From an uncultured Bdellovibrionales bacterium (GTDB lineage: Bacteria > Patescibacteriota > Minisyncoccia > Moranbacterales > GWC2-37-73), in assembly GCA_964452415.1 (NCBI GenBank), contig CAYVME010000001.1:1-63917 (forward strand): DNA of 63,917 nucleotides. Direction: 5' to 3'. The translations under genes were made by a program, and so were the position numbers. The stretch's first letter is position 1, and every line of letters starts with the position of its first letter. Below, piece by piece: positions 59,838 to 63,782 of this stretch. A model generated the notes under the pieces. The model saw nothing but the letters and a program-made list of their open reading frames with translations, was not told the DNA's origin and ran no database searches.

Positions 59838-60062
59838 TTAAGCAAAAAGAATTATAAGAGCAACCACCAATGCATAGATACCTGTTGATTCAGTGATAGC
59901 CATCGCCACAAACATAATAGGTGTGATTTTTCCACTAGCTTCAGGATTTCTCCCAATTGCTTCAAGCGCTTTTGAAGCTGCAATACCTTCACCGATAGCT
60001 GGTCCAATAGCCCCAAGGCCAATAGCCAAACCCGCTGCCAAAAATCTTAGTCCTTCGTCCAT
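59838..60062 (-). CDS. atpE: Fo ATP synthase subunit c (copy 1), Na+-type ion-site signature
   Basis: [16 protein letters not shown]...RNPEA...[15 protein letters not shown]-x-x-Y plus a Glu at the position aligned with Q32 of the Ilyobacter tartaricus c subunit. Confidence 0.9.
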
Positions 60063-60106
60063 GTTTTTTTATTGTTACTTATTAACTTATTAAAAAATTT
60101 AACCAC

Positions 60107-60868
60107 CTATATTGATGCTGCTTCCACCATTTCATCTTCTTCAACCTCAGCAGCCAGATTTATGAACACCACAGTCAGAACCGAAAATACAAACGCCTGC
60201 ACCAATGCTCCCAACAATCCCAAAAACAAAAACGGCAATGGGACAATGAAAGGAGCCAACGCAAGCATTACAGCACCCAAAACCTCTCCGGCAAAAATAT
60301 TTCCAAACAAACGGAATGAGAGCGAGATAACCTTCGCAAATTCACCAATGATATCCATTAGTCCCAAAAAGAAACTGAGTGGACTTTTGAAATTTATAAA
60401 TTTTCCAACATATCCAAATGGTCCGTGCACAAATATGGCGACAATCTGTATTGTTATTGCTGTTACAAGTGTCATGACAAGCACCATTCCATAGTCGGCC
60501 ATCACAGCTCTGAAAACTGCAACATCGTGACCCTCACGAAGCAATGTCACAGCAGATTGACCCGGAATAAAAGAGATCAGATTTGCCACCAAGATAAAAA
60601 CAAACATCGTGAAAGCAAGTGGGAAAATTTTCTTGGTCTTTTTCTCTGATCCCATTATTGAAAGGATAAACTTGTAAGCCTCCTCCATCAACATTTCAAT
60701 AAAATTTTGAAGTTTTCCTGGCTTGTCCTTGCTCAAATTTTTATTGGCAATAAAAATAATTGCCATAATAAAAAAACTGATACCAAAAGAACCTATGAGC
60801 GTGTTAGTCACAGGAAAAGAACCTATATTAAACAATACATCTGGAGCTAGTGATATGTCGAGCTTCAT
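60107..60868 (-). CDS. atpB: Fo ATP synthase subunit a (copy 1)
   Basis: LSFRLFGNIFAGEVL (essential Arg); 5-6 TM helices. Confidence 0.9.
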   Translation of the reverse strand: MKLDISLAPDVLFNIGSFPVTNTLIGSFGISFFIMAIIFIANKNLSKDKPGKLQNFIEMLMEEAYKFILSIMGSEKKTKKIFPLAFTMFVFILVANLISFIPGQSAVTLLREGHDVAVFRAVMADYGMVLVMTLVTAITIQIVAIFVHGPFGYVGKFINFKSPLSFFLGLMDIIGEFAKVISLSFRLFGNIFAGEVLGAVMLALAPFIVPLPFLFLGLLGALVQAFVFSVLTVVFINLAAEVEEDEMVEAASI

Positions 60869-60898
60869 ATTGGTAACACTAATGTTTTCTTTTTAATG

Positions 60899-61189
60899 TC
60901 ATTTTTGCAAATTCTTCAACTTCAATTTTTCTTCCTTTTCTTTTTTCTTCTCCAATCCATATTGCTCCATCATGACATTCAATTTTCTAACCTTTTTGAA
61001 CAATAAGATATTTGTGAGAAAAAAAGCCAAACCCAATCCGACAAATTTATACAAAAGTCTTGTTCCTGAAGCCTTGTCCACGGCATGTCCAATTAGCAAA
61101 AAAATAACAAGCGGTCCCAAGATGGAAGCGCTCGTATAGGCAGCCATGCCCAATACCAACTGTTTCATGTTTTTTTCGTCTTTTTCCAT
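60899..61189 (-). CDS. AtpZ/AtpI-like small membrane protein
   Basis: 96 aa, two TM helices (ILGPLVIFLLIGHAVDK..; VGLGLAFFLTNILLF), first gene of the main atp operon. Confidence 0.45.
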   Translation of the reverse strand: MEKDEKNMKQLVLGMAAYTSASILGPLVIFLLIGHAVDKASGTRLLYKFVGLGLAFFLTNILLFKKVRKLNVMMEQYGLEKKKEKEEKLKLKNLQK

Positions 61190-61214
61190 AGAGAAGTTTC
61201 AAGAGCCATCTAAT

Positions 61215-61243
61215 ATCTTACGCTTCAAAGTCAGATGTGTCAA
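61215..61243 (-). promoter_or_regulatory. sigma70-like promoter of the main atp operon (TTGACA-17-TAAGAT)
   Basis: The minus strand reads TTGACA catctgactttgaagcg TAAGAT, between the atpF copy 2 stop and the atpZ-like start. Confidence 0.6.
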
Positions 61244-61305
61244 TAAGCCCAAAAATAAAGGCTTTCTGAAGGTATTATTCACCCCAAATAAGCACACGAA
61301 ACAAA

Positions 61306-61794
61306 TTATTGAATCGACTTTGCAATCAATTCAGCATCTTTTTTGGCGTCAATTTTTTCATCAATCAACTTGCCTGTTGCAGCCACCACCAAGTCCGCAA
61401 TTTCACCTTTCACTTCTTGCATCATCTTGCTTTTTTCATGTTCAATTTTCTTGATGCCGTCTGTCAAAATTCTTTCTGCTTGAGATTTTGCCTCGACAAT
61501 AATTTCCTCCTTATTCTTCATTGCAACACCCTCAGCTTTTGAAACAATTTCCTGAGCAGCTTTTCTTGCTTCCACCAGAACTTCTTTTTCTTTCTGCGTT
61601 ATCTCTTCCAGTTTTTTTCCTGCTTTTTCAGCATCCTTAATTCCTTTCTCAATTTTTGCAGTTCTCTCGTTCATCATTTTCAACATTGGACCATAAGCAA
61701 ATTGCTTGAGCACAAAAAGCACAATTCCGAAGTTCACCAGTTGAGCAATGATCAGTTTCCAGTCAATGTGAAATGTAGATATTAATTCGTTCAT
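61306..61794 (-). CDS. atpF: Fo ATP synthase subunit b (copy 2)
   Basis: LIIAQLVNFGIVLFVLKQFAYGPMLKMMNERTAKI...; clear paralogue of copy 1 along its whole length. Confidence 0.82.
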   Translation of the reverse strand: MNELISTFHIDWKLIIAQLVNFGIVLFVLKQFAYGPMLKMMNERTAKIEKGIKDAEKAGKKLEEITQKEKEVLVEARKAAQEIVSKAEGVAMKNKEEIIVEAKSQAERILTDGIKKIEHEKSKMMQEVKGEIADLVVAATGKLIDEKIDAKKDAELIAKSIQ

Positions 61795-61850
61795 AAATGT
61801 ATTTAAATAATAATTGAATCTAGAATTATATATTATCCAACAAACACGAA

Positions 61851-61931
61851 GTCATCAGCAATCAGTAATCGGTCATCTTTTTTAAATTCGTAAACCTTGA
61901 ATTTGATGACTGATGACTAGTGACTGATTAC
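61851..61931. repeat. imperfect long inverted repeat built from heptads (GTCATCA-type x4 / TGATGAC-type x4)
   Basis: gtcatca gcaatca gtaatcg gtcatct ... tgatgac tgatgac tagtgac tgattac. About 20 of 28 positions are complementary. Confidence 0.75.
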
Positions 61932-62221: not shown

Positions 62222-62386
62222 ACTCTTTTTGTGCTCACATCATCCATACTTTCTCTCTCTATGGGGAAAATGAATCATGCAAACAAAATTAAATTAATTA
62301 CTGCTAAATTCTTAAATTGTCATATTGCTTTTCTTGGCTAATTATAGCCTTTTCTAGCAATTTGGCAATTTATCGGTTCAGCACAC

Positions 62387-62415
62387 TTGACTTTTTGGTA
62401 ATTTGGGTGTATACT
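62387..62415 (+). promoter_or_regulatory. sigma70-like promoter (TTGACT-17-TATACT) of the plus-strand 85-aa ORF
   Basis: TTGACT ttttggtaatttgggtg TATACT. Confidence 0.6.
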
Positions 62416-62470
62416 ATACGGTTGTAATGGTTTATCAAATCTGCAACAAAATTTCTTAATGGAGGTCACC

Positions 62471-62728
62471 ATGTTGGAATTCAGCTCATTGAAACATTCT
62501 GGTGCCAGGTTCAGAGTAGTAGGACTCGACAAAGTAGCTCAAAGGGATGTCATCCTGAAAAAACTATCCCATCCCATAAGATTCGTAATTCCTTTATTTA
62601 AAAAAGAGTCACCGTCTCTTAATGCTGGGATTATAACCGATATCGACTGCTGCGATATAAATGCAGTTGATGACAATGGGGTATTTTATGCAATTCCCCT
62701 GAACGCAACAATTGAGATTGTGGATTAA
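62471..62728 (+). CDS. hypothetical soluble protein (85 aa), antisense to the second Fo cluster
   Basis: GGAGG lies 5 nt upstream of the ATG at 62471 (ORF 62459..62728). It has its own promoter and terminator. Confidence 0.4.
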   Translation: MLEFSSLKHSGARFRVVGLDKVAQRDVILKKLSHPIRFVIPLFKKESPSLNAGIITDIDCCDINAVDDNGVFYAIPLNATIEIVD

Positions 62729-62758
62729 ATTCGAGTCCATACCTCAAGATTCATCCAT

Positions 62759-62789
62759 AAGCCGACACATTTATGTGCTCGGCTTTTTT
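62759..62789 (+). terminator. rho-independent terminator of the 85-aa ORF
   Basis: aagccgacaca ttta tgtgctcggctt, followed by TTTTT. Confidence 0.7.
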
Positions 62790-62823
62790 ATTTATCTTTT
62801 TTTCAAAGCTACTATCAAAATTT

Positions 62824-62858
62824 AATCCTGGATTCCGGATCTGCTGTCCGGAATGACA
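62824..62858. repeat. REP-like palindromic element (copy 3)
   Basis: aatcctggattccgga tctgctg tccggaatgaca. Followed by ctgaattgcatttttgaatt and degenerate heptads up to the atpB copy 2 stop. Confidence 0.75.
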
Positions 62859-62924
62859 AAGTTTTAAACTCTGAATTGCATTTTTGAATTTTTTGCTTTC
62901 AACTTTCGACTTTATGGACTATTT

Positions 62925-63782
62925 TTAATGTTCCTCTGCGGTTGTCGCTATTGAAATAAACGCCAGAGTCAAAATCGCAAAAACCAAGGCCTGAACAATT
63001 CCCACAATCAATTCCATAAACATGAATGGGAGTGGAAGCAAGAATGCGGAAATTGACATCATGGAAGCCAGCAAAACTTCACCCGCAAAAATGTTTCCGA
63101 AAAGTCGAAGGCTTAGCGAGGCAATCTTGGCAACTTCCCCGATAATTTCAATCAAGCCCACAAAAATTTTGATTGGGTTGACCATCAAAATCATTGGATC
63201 CTTTTTGATTTTTTTCGGAATCGCAATAATCGCCTTGATGTTCACAAACTTATTGAAATGATTCCAAACTCCGATTGAGATGACTCCGAGCACATGCGAA
63301 AGCACCACCGAAAAAAGTCCAATTGCCAAAGTCGTGTTGAGGTCTGCGGTTGCTCCACGAAAAAGTGGCACAAAAACTTTTCCATGCTCTCCAGTTTCCA
63401 CAAACCCAATTGTTCCGACACCAGGTAGAAGCCCCATCCAGTTGCTCATCAAAACAAAAAGAAATAACGCAAGAATTATAGGTAAAAATTTCAAAGTTTT
63501 CTTGCGATCATTTGTTACACTATCAGCCATCACAAGAGCTTGCTCCAAAATTATTTCAAAAAAATTGTGAAGTCCTTTCGGCACACTTTTTGTTGATTTT
63601 TTTGCTTTTTTTCCAGACACAACAAAAAATGTCACCAAAACAGCAACTGTGATCCAACTCATAATCAAAGAGTTTGTAATGTTGAAATTTCCCACATGCA
63701 AAATCGGCTCAGCAAAAAGAGTCGATTCGTGAGAAATTTCAGTCGATTCAGTATTCCTTATTTGTTCAACTGTCTGAGACAT
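62925..63782 (-). CDS. atpB: Fo ATP synthase subunit a (copy 2)
   Basis: LSLRLFGNIFAGEVL with the essential Arg; 285 aa with a longer N-terminus than copy 1. Confidence 0.88.
   Translation of the reverse strand: MSQTVEQIRNTESTEISHESTLFAEPILHVGNFNITNSLIMSWITVAVLVTFFVVSGKKAKKSTKSVPKGLHNFFEIILEQALVMADSVTNDRKKTLKFLPIILALFLFVLMSNWMGLLPGVGTIGFVETGEHGKVFVPLFRGATADLNTTLAIGLFSVVLSHVLGVISIGVWNHFNKFVNIKAIIAIPKKIKKDPMILMVNPIKIFVGLIEIIGEVAKIASLSLRLFGNIFAGEVLLASMMSISAFLLPLPFMFMELIVGIVQALVFAILTLAFISIATTAEEH

Follow-up and report, generated by a model that had tools for sequence, protein, structure and literature searches.

Why does one F1 lie beside two sets of Fo genes, and which ion drives the enzyme? 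This question is raised by the atp locus of an uncultured Bdellovibrionales bacterium (NCBI GenBank assembly GCA_964452415.1), which GTDB places in the Patescibacteriota (Minisyncoccia; Moranbacterales; GWC2-37-73). The window analyzed here is a stretch of 63,917 nt, positions 1 to 63,917 of the forward strand of contig CAYVME010000001.1. The host is a Moranbacteria-related Patescibacterium, and its metagenome-assembled genome (MAG) of 985 kb in 53 contigs is 98% complete. On the minus strand of the window the genes follow each other in the transcription order a2-c2-b2-Z1-a1-c1-b1-delta-alpha-gamma-beta-epsilon, so that two intact a-c-b sets accompany one delta-alpha-gamma-beta-epsilon set. 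We refer to a1-c1-b1 as set 1 and to a2-c2-b2 as set 2; Z1 is a small gene similar to atpZ/atpI. A first-pass annotation, made from the sequence alone, had taken the genes from Z1 onward as the complete operon and set 2 as an extra, duplicated Fo. The comparison with related genomes reverses this view: the upstream set appears to be the old Fo of the genus, and the downstream set very probably came in from another lineage together with delta and the beginning of alpha.

Two Fo Sets with Contrasting Ion Sites

The open reading frames (ORFs) that had been assigned to the atp genes are all present on the minus strand at the positions given for them, and the a, c and b copies were confirmed by Pfam. 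Both sets scored above the gathering thresholds of PF00119 (a), PF00137 (c) and PF00430 (b), with six matches of 67-139 bits. The identity between set 1 and set 2 was 34% for a, 51% for c and 49% for b. The essential Arg is kept in both a subunits (motif LSLRLFGNIFAGE in a2 and LSFRLFGNIFAGE in a1), as is the helix-2 carboxylate in both c subunits (E58 in c1, E59 in c2), and both c genes encode single hairpins of 73-74 aa. The proposal of a single F1 beside two Fo sets held when the remainder of the genome was checked: no further atp genes were found in the 985 kb, which contain two c genes, one alpha gene and one beta gene.

Residues E25/E58/S59/T60/Y63 of c1 aligned with E32/E65/S66/T67/Y70 of Fusobacterium nucleatum when c1 was compared with the c-ring 3zk1 by HMMER, without gaps and over both helices. 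In the F. nucleatum ring, Na+ is coordinated by the side chains of E32, E65, S66, T67 and Y70, by the backbone of residue 63 and by a water molecule held by T67 (PMC3692424). The subunit c2 has an Ile (I26) at the helix-1 position and the stretch E59-A-I-A-I-Y64, as is typical of H+ rings; among solved structures, c2 was best matched by the c subunit of Chloroflexus aurantiacus (9itj). Measured against the Na+ signature (Gln/Glu32, Glu65, Ser66, Thr67 and Tyr70 in the numbering of Ilyobacter tartaricus), c1 has every residue and c2 deviates at I26, A60 and I61.

The Fo modules of the family fall into three types: an H+-type that we call a2, a further H+-type (type 3) and a Na+-type with an atpZ-like gene. 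We aligned c from 50 loci of relatives, with I. tartaricus as a reference row. The signature E...EST[GA]IY was restricted to operons of the a1-type, and all a2-type and type-3 operons showed [ILV]...EA[IV][AS]IY. From these alignments c1 is judged to carry a complete Na+ site of the Fusobacterium type and is predicted to bind Na+, and c2 is judged to be of the H+-type. Both assignments had been made in the first-pass annotation by hand alignment; the Ser, Thr and Glu residues of c1 do map onto the ion site, and the comparison with solved c-rings bears out the H+-type of c2.

The Upstream Set Is the Fo of the Genus

The Fo genes of eight other genomes of the genus (genus-mates) are orthologous to set 2, with identities of 74-84% for a, 82-90% for c and 64-77% for b. 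The genus-mates and most of the family have one operon with the order a-c-b-delta-alpha-gamma-beta-epsilon. The alpha, gamma, beta and epsilon genes of the window are 68-95% identical to those of the genus-mates. Another genus of the family, g4, was consistently more distant in this part of the operon: 75-76% versus 82-90% for gamma, 86% versus 89-95% for beta and 59% versus 68-78% for epsilon. In trees of gamma, beta and epsilon, also with the C-terminal part of alpha (alphaC) included, the genome was nested within its own genus. The subunit a2, also together with c2 and b2, was placed inside the a2-type clade with 100% support in the SH-like approximate likelihood ratio test (SH-aLRT).

The gene neighborhood is in line with this. 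An aminoacyl-tRNA synthetase-TatD-atp locus is syntenic across all three Fo types of the family. Just past the end of the window (contig 63918-64212), a scaffold gap of 10 N is followed by a second atpZ-like ORF, Z2, by TatD and by an aminoacyl-tRNA synthetase gene. Z2 matched PF09527 with 30.4 bits, above the cut-off of 26.6; its 3' end falls into the gap, and it is accompanied by a box TTGACT-17-GATAAT. Since Z2 lies upstream of a2, the native module would be Z2-a2-c2-b2. By identity and tree position, the upstream a2-c2-b2 set is thus to be regarded as the ancestral, vertically inherited Fo of the genus, and not as an extra set: its a and c subunits are 74-90% identical to those of the only Fo that the genus-mates have.

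Origin of the Downstream Fo

Set 1 and its neighbors gave a different result. The genes Z-a-c-b-delta of g4 and of a further genus of the family, g9, are homologous to Z1-a1-c1-b1-delta of the window; g4 includes Candidatus Moranbacteria GW2011_GWE1_49_15. In these donor-like lineages the genes belong to ordinary sole operons with the order TatD-atpI-a-c-b-delta-alpha and so on. The identity to g4 was 57% for Z1, 74% for a1, 80% for c1, 71% for b1 and 66% for delta. For single loci of relatives (numbered L), we found that Z1 is 51-58% identical to its counterparts in L033, L037 and L023, and c1 is 80% identical to c of L033 and L023. The subunit b1 is 71% identical to b of the latter two loci versus 46-51% to b of the genus-mates. 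Delta is 66% identical to delta of L033/L023 and only 39-50% to that of the genus-mates, which among themselves reach about 61%. The best matches of a1 in the protein database had identities of 80% and, in Candidatus Moranbacteria, 74%. Z1 itself matched PF09527 weakly (14.1 bits at a cut-off of 26.6, E = 0.049). Its orthologues stand at the same place upstream of a in the Na+-type operons and also carry weak PF09527 marks.

The trees agreed with the identities. A tree of a1, c1 and b1 placed set 1 in the Na+-type clade, and delta together with the N-terminal part of alpha (alphaN) was placed in the g4/g9 clade, each with 100% SH-aLRT support. The foreign segment extends over about 2.8 kb (window ~61245-58435) and comprises a promoter, Z1, a1, c1, b1, delta and codons 1 to ~130 of alpha. 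This cassette very probably derives from a Na+-type sister lineage of the same family and would have replaced the native delta and alpha crown. The operon that had been described as complete is accordingly a recombinant, in which the atpZ-like gene, a, c, b, delta and the first ~130 codons of alpha are those of a Na+-type lineage.

Our search for the donor itself yielded nothing above 46% identity in a sample of 400 genomes of the phylum, and the best donor match in a large protein database (80%) lies on a 2-kb sediment contig. No compositional anomaly was detected: the cassette does not differ from the host in GC content or in GC content at third codon positions (GC3). Such a host-like composition would be explained either by a donor of similar GC content or by amelioration to the host over time. 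With the donor unsampled, the GC content host-like and the best a1 match at 80%, the event cannot be dated.

A Mosaic Alpha Gene and the Two Junctions

The change from foreign to native sequence lies inside the alpha gene. In sliding windows, residues 1 to ~125 of alpha showed 82-98% amino acid identity to g4 versus 60-74% to the genus-mates. From about residue 250 on the preference was reversed, and the genus-mates were closer than g4. The nucleotide windows of the alpha crown showed the same preference, with 73-86% identity to g4 versus 59-76% to the own genus. We also scored diagnostic amino acid sites, defined as positions at which donor and host lineages share no residue. Among residues 28-124, 14 of the 16 such sites were of the donor type and none of the host type; among residues 214-506 all six were of the host type. 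Diagnostic nucleotides were split 26 donor to 10 host before codon 128 and 6 to 30 after it (Fisher p = 3.7e-6). The switch from donor to host was located to codons 126-136, which corresponds to window 58451-58419.

On the left side, nucleotide homology to the genus-mates stops with the end of b2 at ~61319, and homology to g4 and the Na+-type relatives starts at 61245. The spacer 61246-61305 in between is unlike the b-delta spacers of the genus-mates. The segment therefore combines a discordant phylogeny with definable breakpoints, as expected for a recombinant segment. The right end is best read as a homologous crossover and the left end as an illegitimate join. One homologous and one illegitimate end together would presumably correspond to homology-facilitated illegitimate recombination. 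The features of the locus are compiled in Table 1.

Table 1. Features of the atp locus, with positions in the window (63,917 nt).
Feature	Position	Strand	Basis or remarks
a2, native genus-type subunit a	62925..63782	-	285 aa, intact, PF00119 E = 7e-40
a2-c2 spacer	62222..62924	.	703 bp, short dispersed repeats and an opposite-strand 89-aa ORF
c2 leader with hairpin	62222..62280	-	conserved in all a2-type operons
c2, predicted native H+-type subunit c	62000..62221	-	73 aa, PF00137; I26, E59-A60-I61-A62-I63-Y64
b2, native subunit b	61306..61794	-	162 aa, intact, PF00430
Left junction, read as illegitimate	61246..61305	-	60-nt spacer, b2 stop to cassette
Cassette promoter TTGACA-17-TAAGAT	61215..61243	-	box conserved in Na+-type relatives
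Z1, atpZ/atpI-like small membrane protein	60899..61189	-	96 aa, positional orthology
a1, Na+-clade subunit a	60107..60868	-	253 aa, PF00119, motif LSFRLFGNIFAGE
c1, predicted Na+-type two-carboxylate subunit c	59838..60062	-	74 aa; E25, I56, E58, S59, T60, Y63
b1, cassette subunit b	59277..59771	-	164 aa, PF00430
delta, short, probably cassette-derived	58851..59255	-	134 aa, OSCP match at profile positions 48-172
alpha codons 1 to ~130 (crown docking delta), probably donor-derived	58437..58826	-	sliding windows, diagnostic sites
Right crossover in alpha, codons 126-136, read as homologous	58419..58451	-	diagnostic nucleotides
alpha codons ~131-506, native	57306..58436	-	sliding windows, diagnostic sites
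Whole alpha gene	57306..58826	-	donor-type N-terminus and native remainder
gamma, native	56289..57248	-	identities and tree
beta, native	54175..55551	-	identities to genus-mates
epsilon, native	53710..54144	-	identities to genus-mates

A Model for the Locus and Its Use

We propose that the ancestor had an operon of the a2-type, Z2-a2-c2-b2-delta-alpha-gamma-beta-epsilon, into which the ~2.8-kb fragment of the Na+ lineage recombined. At its right end the fragment would have been joined by the crossover within alpha, and at its left end by an illegitimate join in the b-delta spacer, just upstream of the -35 box of the cassette. The native delta and alpha crown would thereby have been lost, and the native Fo genes would have been left intact upstream. 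The cassette would supply parts that fit each other: the ion path of a and c, an assembly factor of the atpZ/I type, b, delta and the N-terminus of alpha on which delta docks. Because co-transferred parts have to fit each other, the Na+ Fo would be the motor that is coupled to F1. We infer that this Fo is hard-wired to F1 and that the native gamma and epsilon subunits drive a foreign c-ring.

For the upstream set, transcripts from a native upstream promoter would read through a2-c2-b2 into the cassette, with the cassette promoter as a second start. Whether the H+ Fo is still made and assembles on the same pool of F1 through the shared delta, giving populations of Na+- and H+-coupled enzymes, is an even call on the present data.

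The genes a2, c2 and b2 are of full length, without stops or frameshifts in ~2.2 kb. Their relative divergence (distance to the genus-mates divided by the distance among genus-mates) was 1.10 for a2, 1.45 for c2 and 1.23 for b2; the values for the native remainder of the operon were 1.12 for gamma, 1.13 for beta, 1.19 for epsilon and 1.41 for alphaC. The pairwise ratios of nonsynonymous to synonymous substitution rates (dN/dS) of 0.13 for a2, 0.10 for c2 and 0.07 for b2 were the same as among the genus-mates, in a comparison in which dS is saturated (≥1) and which is blind to recent relaxation. A leader directly upstream of c2 is also intact. The small size and streamlining of the genome also favor continued use. 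G687, an independent genome from another family, keeps an intact orphan H+ Z-a-c-b module along with a Na+ operon, and some Patescibacteria hold complete H+ and Na+ operons side by side (e.g., G383). The data for the upstream set show no decay and are compatible with a recent event. Degeneration of this set had been considered from the start: the ORFs proved to be intact and no clear acceleration of rates was seen with saturated dS, but there is a slight excess of private changes.

This excess belongs to several points that weigh against our reconstruction. At columns that are otherwise invariant, a2, c2 and b2 together have 8 private substitutions in 507 positions versus 3 in 772 for gamma and beta (p = 0.03); other isolated lineages have 4-11 in Fo versus 6-10 in gamma and beta. 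The changes are mostly conservative, but include P22T and A58T in c2, the latter adjoining the carboxylate. The cognate delta and alpha crown of set 2 are lost, and the available delta, to which b2 would need to attach, shares only ~41% identity with the native one. The arrangement occurs in one of nine species of the genus and may therefore be young. The cassette has the GC content of the host, at variance with the 45% GC of the g4 loci, and its donor, with a best a1 match of only 80%, is unsampled. The linkage of Z2 and TatD to a2 spans the 10-N scaffold gap. Finally, one of two independent assemblies, from run SRR446577, leaves the window sequence after alpha codon 212. Assemblers struggle in alpha, and both downstream versions are of the genus type.

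The strongest alternative accepts the recombination and holds that Z2-a2-c2-b2 has no function, that a replacement of H+ by Na+ coupling is caught midway and that only the Na+ enzyme is assembled. We consider this a tenable possibility that falls short of an even chance. It would account for the absence of the delta and alpha crown that belong to set 2, for the slight excess of private changes including P22T and A58T, and for the occurrence in one species of the genus and in none of 24 other genomes of the family; one-sided homologous integration would be expected to yield such leftovers as a by-product. However, ~2.2 kb have remained free of stops and frameshifts despite strong genome reduction, dN/dS and relative rates are indistinguishable from those of relatives with a single Fo, and the c leader is conserved. 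The second genome with an intact orphan H+ Fo also speaks against a relic, as does the lack of decayed c genes among 319 genomes of the order, a count that short pseudogenes could escape. We therefore lean slightly toward continued use of the H+ set.

If both motors were in use on one F1 pool, a tentative proposal, the membrane could be energized by either ion. Enzyme populations running in opposite directions would then interconvert the sodium-motive and the proton-motive force. This would be useful because no Na+/H+ exchanger of the cation/proton antiporter type was found in the genome by a PF00999 search. PF03030 (membrane pyrophosphatase) was absent as well; these two profiles were the only ones searched. 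The occurrence of PF00999 and PF03030 among the relatives is patchy and unrelated to the Fo type.

An extreme version would be a single complex with two unlike stators on a truncated delta, comparable to the two-stalk Chloroflexus enzyme. More generally, both sets might serve one complex, either through a mixed c1/c2 ring or through unlike stators a1-b1 and a2-b2 on one F1. Among solved structures, a and c2 are closest to those of the a2-b4-delta2-c10 enzyme of C. aurantiacus (9itj), in which a shortened N-terminal domain of delta has been linked to two stalks (PMC12002316). Delta of the window, with 134 aa, lacks most of this domain, so that the short-delta mark of the C. aurantiacus type of multi-stalk F-ATPase is present. 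A 2026 preprint proposes multi-stalk enzymes for bacteria of the candidate phyla radiation (CPR) with short delta, and heteromeric c-rings exist in Acetobacterium woodii (4bem). Nevertheless, all relatives share the short delta and possess only one gene each for a and b, so that a multi-stalk design can do without a second set. Recombination accounts for the second set without a structural need, and a ring that mixes Na+ and H+ sites against two different channels has no known precedent. Joint assembly is thus improbable.

The short delta is a general trait. In most of the order delta has 132-138 aa (in a few cases up to ~152) and most of the N-terminal helical domain is missing. The PDB alignments of the window delta covered only the C-terminal two thirds of delta/OSCP.

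Support from Independent Assemblies

In a MAG of 53 contigs, with a scaffold gap just outside the window, an H+ operon and a Na+ operon from two populations living together might have been fused into a chimera by assembly or binning. We compared the window with Logan contigs, which are assemblies of single runs made with a different assembler. A contig from SRR446576 was 100% identical over 62797-58237 and a contig from SRR446577 over 61711-58191, and both cross the b2-Z1 junction as well as the alpha crossover. The b2-Z1 junction lies in unique, non-repeated sequence, and the crossover at codons 126-136 lies outside the most conserved stretch of alpha, where cross-overs in the assembly graph would be expected. 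The SRR446576 contig stops at alpha codon 197. The SRR446577 contig (L067) switches to another genus-type alpha, with ~17% base divergence from codon 213; the assembler may have crossed over into a co-occurring relative, or strains may have recombined, and the mosaic is unaffected in both cases. A chimera is therefore very unlikely to explain the locus.

A tandem duplication of a-c-b in situ with later divergence of ion specificity, which the adjacent position and common orientation of the sets might suggest and which the first-pass annotation implied by speaking of duplicated a and c, can be practically dismissed: the alignments and trees of both subunits that it had recommended confirmed the Na+ and H+ types but refuted duplication, with each set in a separate clade at 100% support and far closer to orthologues in other genomes (74-90%) than to the other set (34-51%), and delta and alphaN travel with set 1.

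Comparison with Known Systems

How ATP synthases have switched between Na+ and H+ coupling is a long-standing question of their evolution, usually framed in terms of point changes in subunit c. At this locus the ion switch would be a module swap, in which one recombination moved the assembly factor, a, c, b, delta and the alpha crown. The boundaries of the swap are those that engineers needed for working Na+/H+ hybrids. In the 1990s, Kaim and Dimroth reportedly combined the Fo of Propionigenium modestum (a, b and c) and delta (with part of alpha) with the F1 of Escherichia coli. These engineered hybrids share with the window the same module boundary, with a Na+ motor and stator top on an H+ catalytic core, and demonstrate that chimeras can work. 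In contrast to them, the window represents a natural case within one family (49% identity for b and 34% for a between the sets), and the Fo of the recipient was kept. A hybrid of I. tartaricus F1-ab2 with the F. nucleatum c-ring has also been described (PMC3692424).

The F. nucleatum type of Na+ F1Fo (3zk1; PMC3692424) resembles set 1 by all site side chains in c1, the single-hairpin c and an atpI/Z-like first gene. It differs by an overall identity of only ~45-50%, and the enzyme described here, from a Patescibacterium with a truncated delta, is known from its sequence. The known Na+ enzymes also differ in that the Na+ Fo is paired here with gamma, beta, epsilon and most of alpha from an H+ lineage.

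The ectopic Fo of Desulfococcus oleovorans (Koumandou and Kossida 2014, PMC4154653) is similar in that a second a-c-b set exists beside a single F1 and that a and c are apparently foreign. That set, however, is ectopic, and no contrast of ion sites was described. At the present locus the second set is part of the operon, F1 is joined to the foreign set, and the exchange also took in delta and alphaN. The N-ATPase (atpDCQRBEFAG; PMC2881411) likewise is a laterally moving Na+-type module, and many of its c subunits have a Glu in helix 1. It forms, however, a complete additional operon, which brings alpha, beta, gamma and epsilon genes of its own, lacks delta, contains atpQ and atpR and has another gene order. 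The order Z-a-c-b-delta-alpha-gamma-beta-epsilon, the presence of delta and the single alpha and beta genes rule out that the window encodes an N-ATPase.

In A. woodii (4bem) more than one kind of c gene is also found in the operon of a Na+ enzyme. There, one a, one b and one ring are present, and the ring is built from a double-hairpin c1 and c2/c3, all of which bind Na+ or lack a site. An F/V hybrid rotor of this type was rejected for the window, in which both c subunits are single hairpins with a carboxylate. Among solved structures, a and c2 are best matched by the two-stalk F1Fo of C. aurantiacus (9itj; PMC12002316), in which the N-domain of delta is shortened as well. Each of its enzymes contains two copies of the product of one a gene and one b gene.

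Lateral transfer of whole Na+ ATPase operons (N-ATPase, PMC2881411) and duplicated ectopic Fo genes (PMC4154653) were thus already known. For a natural swap of Fo, delta and alpha crown within an operon, with the old Fo kept and with contrasting ion sites, we found no description in the literature. With its native Fo retained, the locus would be a rare intermediate of evolution or, alternatively, a natural enzyme system for two coupling ions in a bacterium whose bioenergetics are minimal. For annotation, the locus calls for caution: seemingly complete atp operons of Patescibacteria can be mosaics, and taxonomy is no guide to the coupling ion.

Occurrence in the Order and in the Phylum

The arrangement proved to be as rare as the first-pass annotation had supposed. 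All 40 close relatives examined lack a second c gene, and no second Fo set was present among 17 loci with a1 from a contig scan. Two or more c matches were found in 13 of 319 genomes of the order, and these were resolved as fused double-hairpin c subunits, second operons without delta, redundant contigs and one true parallel. This parallel, G687, is the only other genome of the 319 with the same composition as the window. In a sample of 400 genomes of the phylum, two a genes were confirmed for four genomes, each of which has two complete operons; in G383, one of the four, these are of the H+ and the Na+ type.

In G687 an orphan H+ Z-a-c-b module of the a2-type is followed by an 8.7-kb NuoB-L-H-M-CD and carbonic-anhydrase-like cluster and by a complete Na+-type operon. 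Its F1 is nearest to that of a genus-mate with a type-3 Fo. The orphan Fo and the Na+ Fo fall into the expected clades, far from the copies of the window, and this distance indicates an independent event. If the modules are in use, this recurrence would make Z-a-c-b exchangeable, selectable cassettes in Patescibacteria.

The intervening Nuo cluster of G687 (L091 767-9012) consists of six genes and is complex-I/Mbh-like. Its products are NuoB, two antiporter-like subunits, NuoH, a putative carbonic anhydrase (PF20393) and a NuoCD fusion that includes a NiFe-hydrogenase-like region. The part from NuoB to NuoCD lies directly behind atpC in G684 (L105).

Other variants were encountered as well. 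Within the order, fused double-hairpin c genes are present in all four genomes of genus g360 (G481-G484) and in G476 of a neighboring genus, as frames of 159-185 aa with two PF00137 matches (e.g., G483:C11:52539-52964). Very divergent, compact second operons a-c-b-alpha-gamma-beta-epsilon without delta were seen in several Patescibacteria, at L059, L061, L063, L093, L094 and L097 (G149, G258, G244, G586, G475 and G439) and at L072 (G383). Their alpha and beta are 43-49% identical to those of the window, with 65% for beta of G383, and their c is mostly of the H+-type; c of the second operon of G383 is of the Na+-type. In F1 and Fo trees alike, family f9 (genus g413) has a2-type operons that cluster with family f1, and the F1 genes of G677 and G687, which are placed in the same genus, fall elsewhere in the trees. 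This suggests that whole atp operons, beyond Fo modules alone, may have moved between families of the order.

Promoters, Spacers and RNA Elements

The promoter-like box in front of Z1 had been proposed as a strong internal promoter. The site is present, and a TTGACAC...TAAAAT box upstream of the atpZ-like gene is conserved in g4 and g9, at L033, L041, L023 and L037, despite differing sequences further upstream. In our promoter and terminator scan, promoter-like hits were no more common at this locus than in shuffled sequence, and the weight given to 61243-61215 therefore rests on its conservation among relatives. The proposed separate transcription of the upstream set is not borne out: no terminator or stable fold was detected between b2 and Z1 (fold z-score -0.64), and read-through into the cassette is thus expected.

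A leader of ~55 nt directly upstream of c is present in L005-L010 and L027-L043. Its stem ATYCAT...ATGRAT shows compensatory changes between genera (ATTCAT/ATGAAT, ATCTAT/ATAG.T and TTTCTG/CAGGAA). The leader, which has no Rfam match, may be a translational or stability element for a highly expressed c gene. No Rfam family was found in 53000-63917 at E ≤ 0.1.

The spacer between a2 and c2 contains a ~90-nt repeat (62784-62894) that is 80% identical to one in the 737-bp gamma-beta spacer (55552-56288). Pieces of the a2-c2 spacer recur at 56162-56251 and on five other contigs, and the copies of the ~90-nt repeat on these contigs are shorter. The part 62437-62302 is shared with the genus-mate L007, whose operon is its only one, and the spacer is therefore no sign of decay. 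Among relatives, spacers at the a2-c2 and gamma-beta positions range from ~30 to 2300 bp. The opposite-strand ORFs in the a2-c2 spacer (89 aa) and in the gamma-beta spacer (104 aa) had no Pfam match and no homologue in 60 loci of relatives, and are doubtful as genes. Downstream of atpC, the window continues with a SulP gene and a gene for a protein that was termed carbonic-anhydrase-like in the first-pass annotation.

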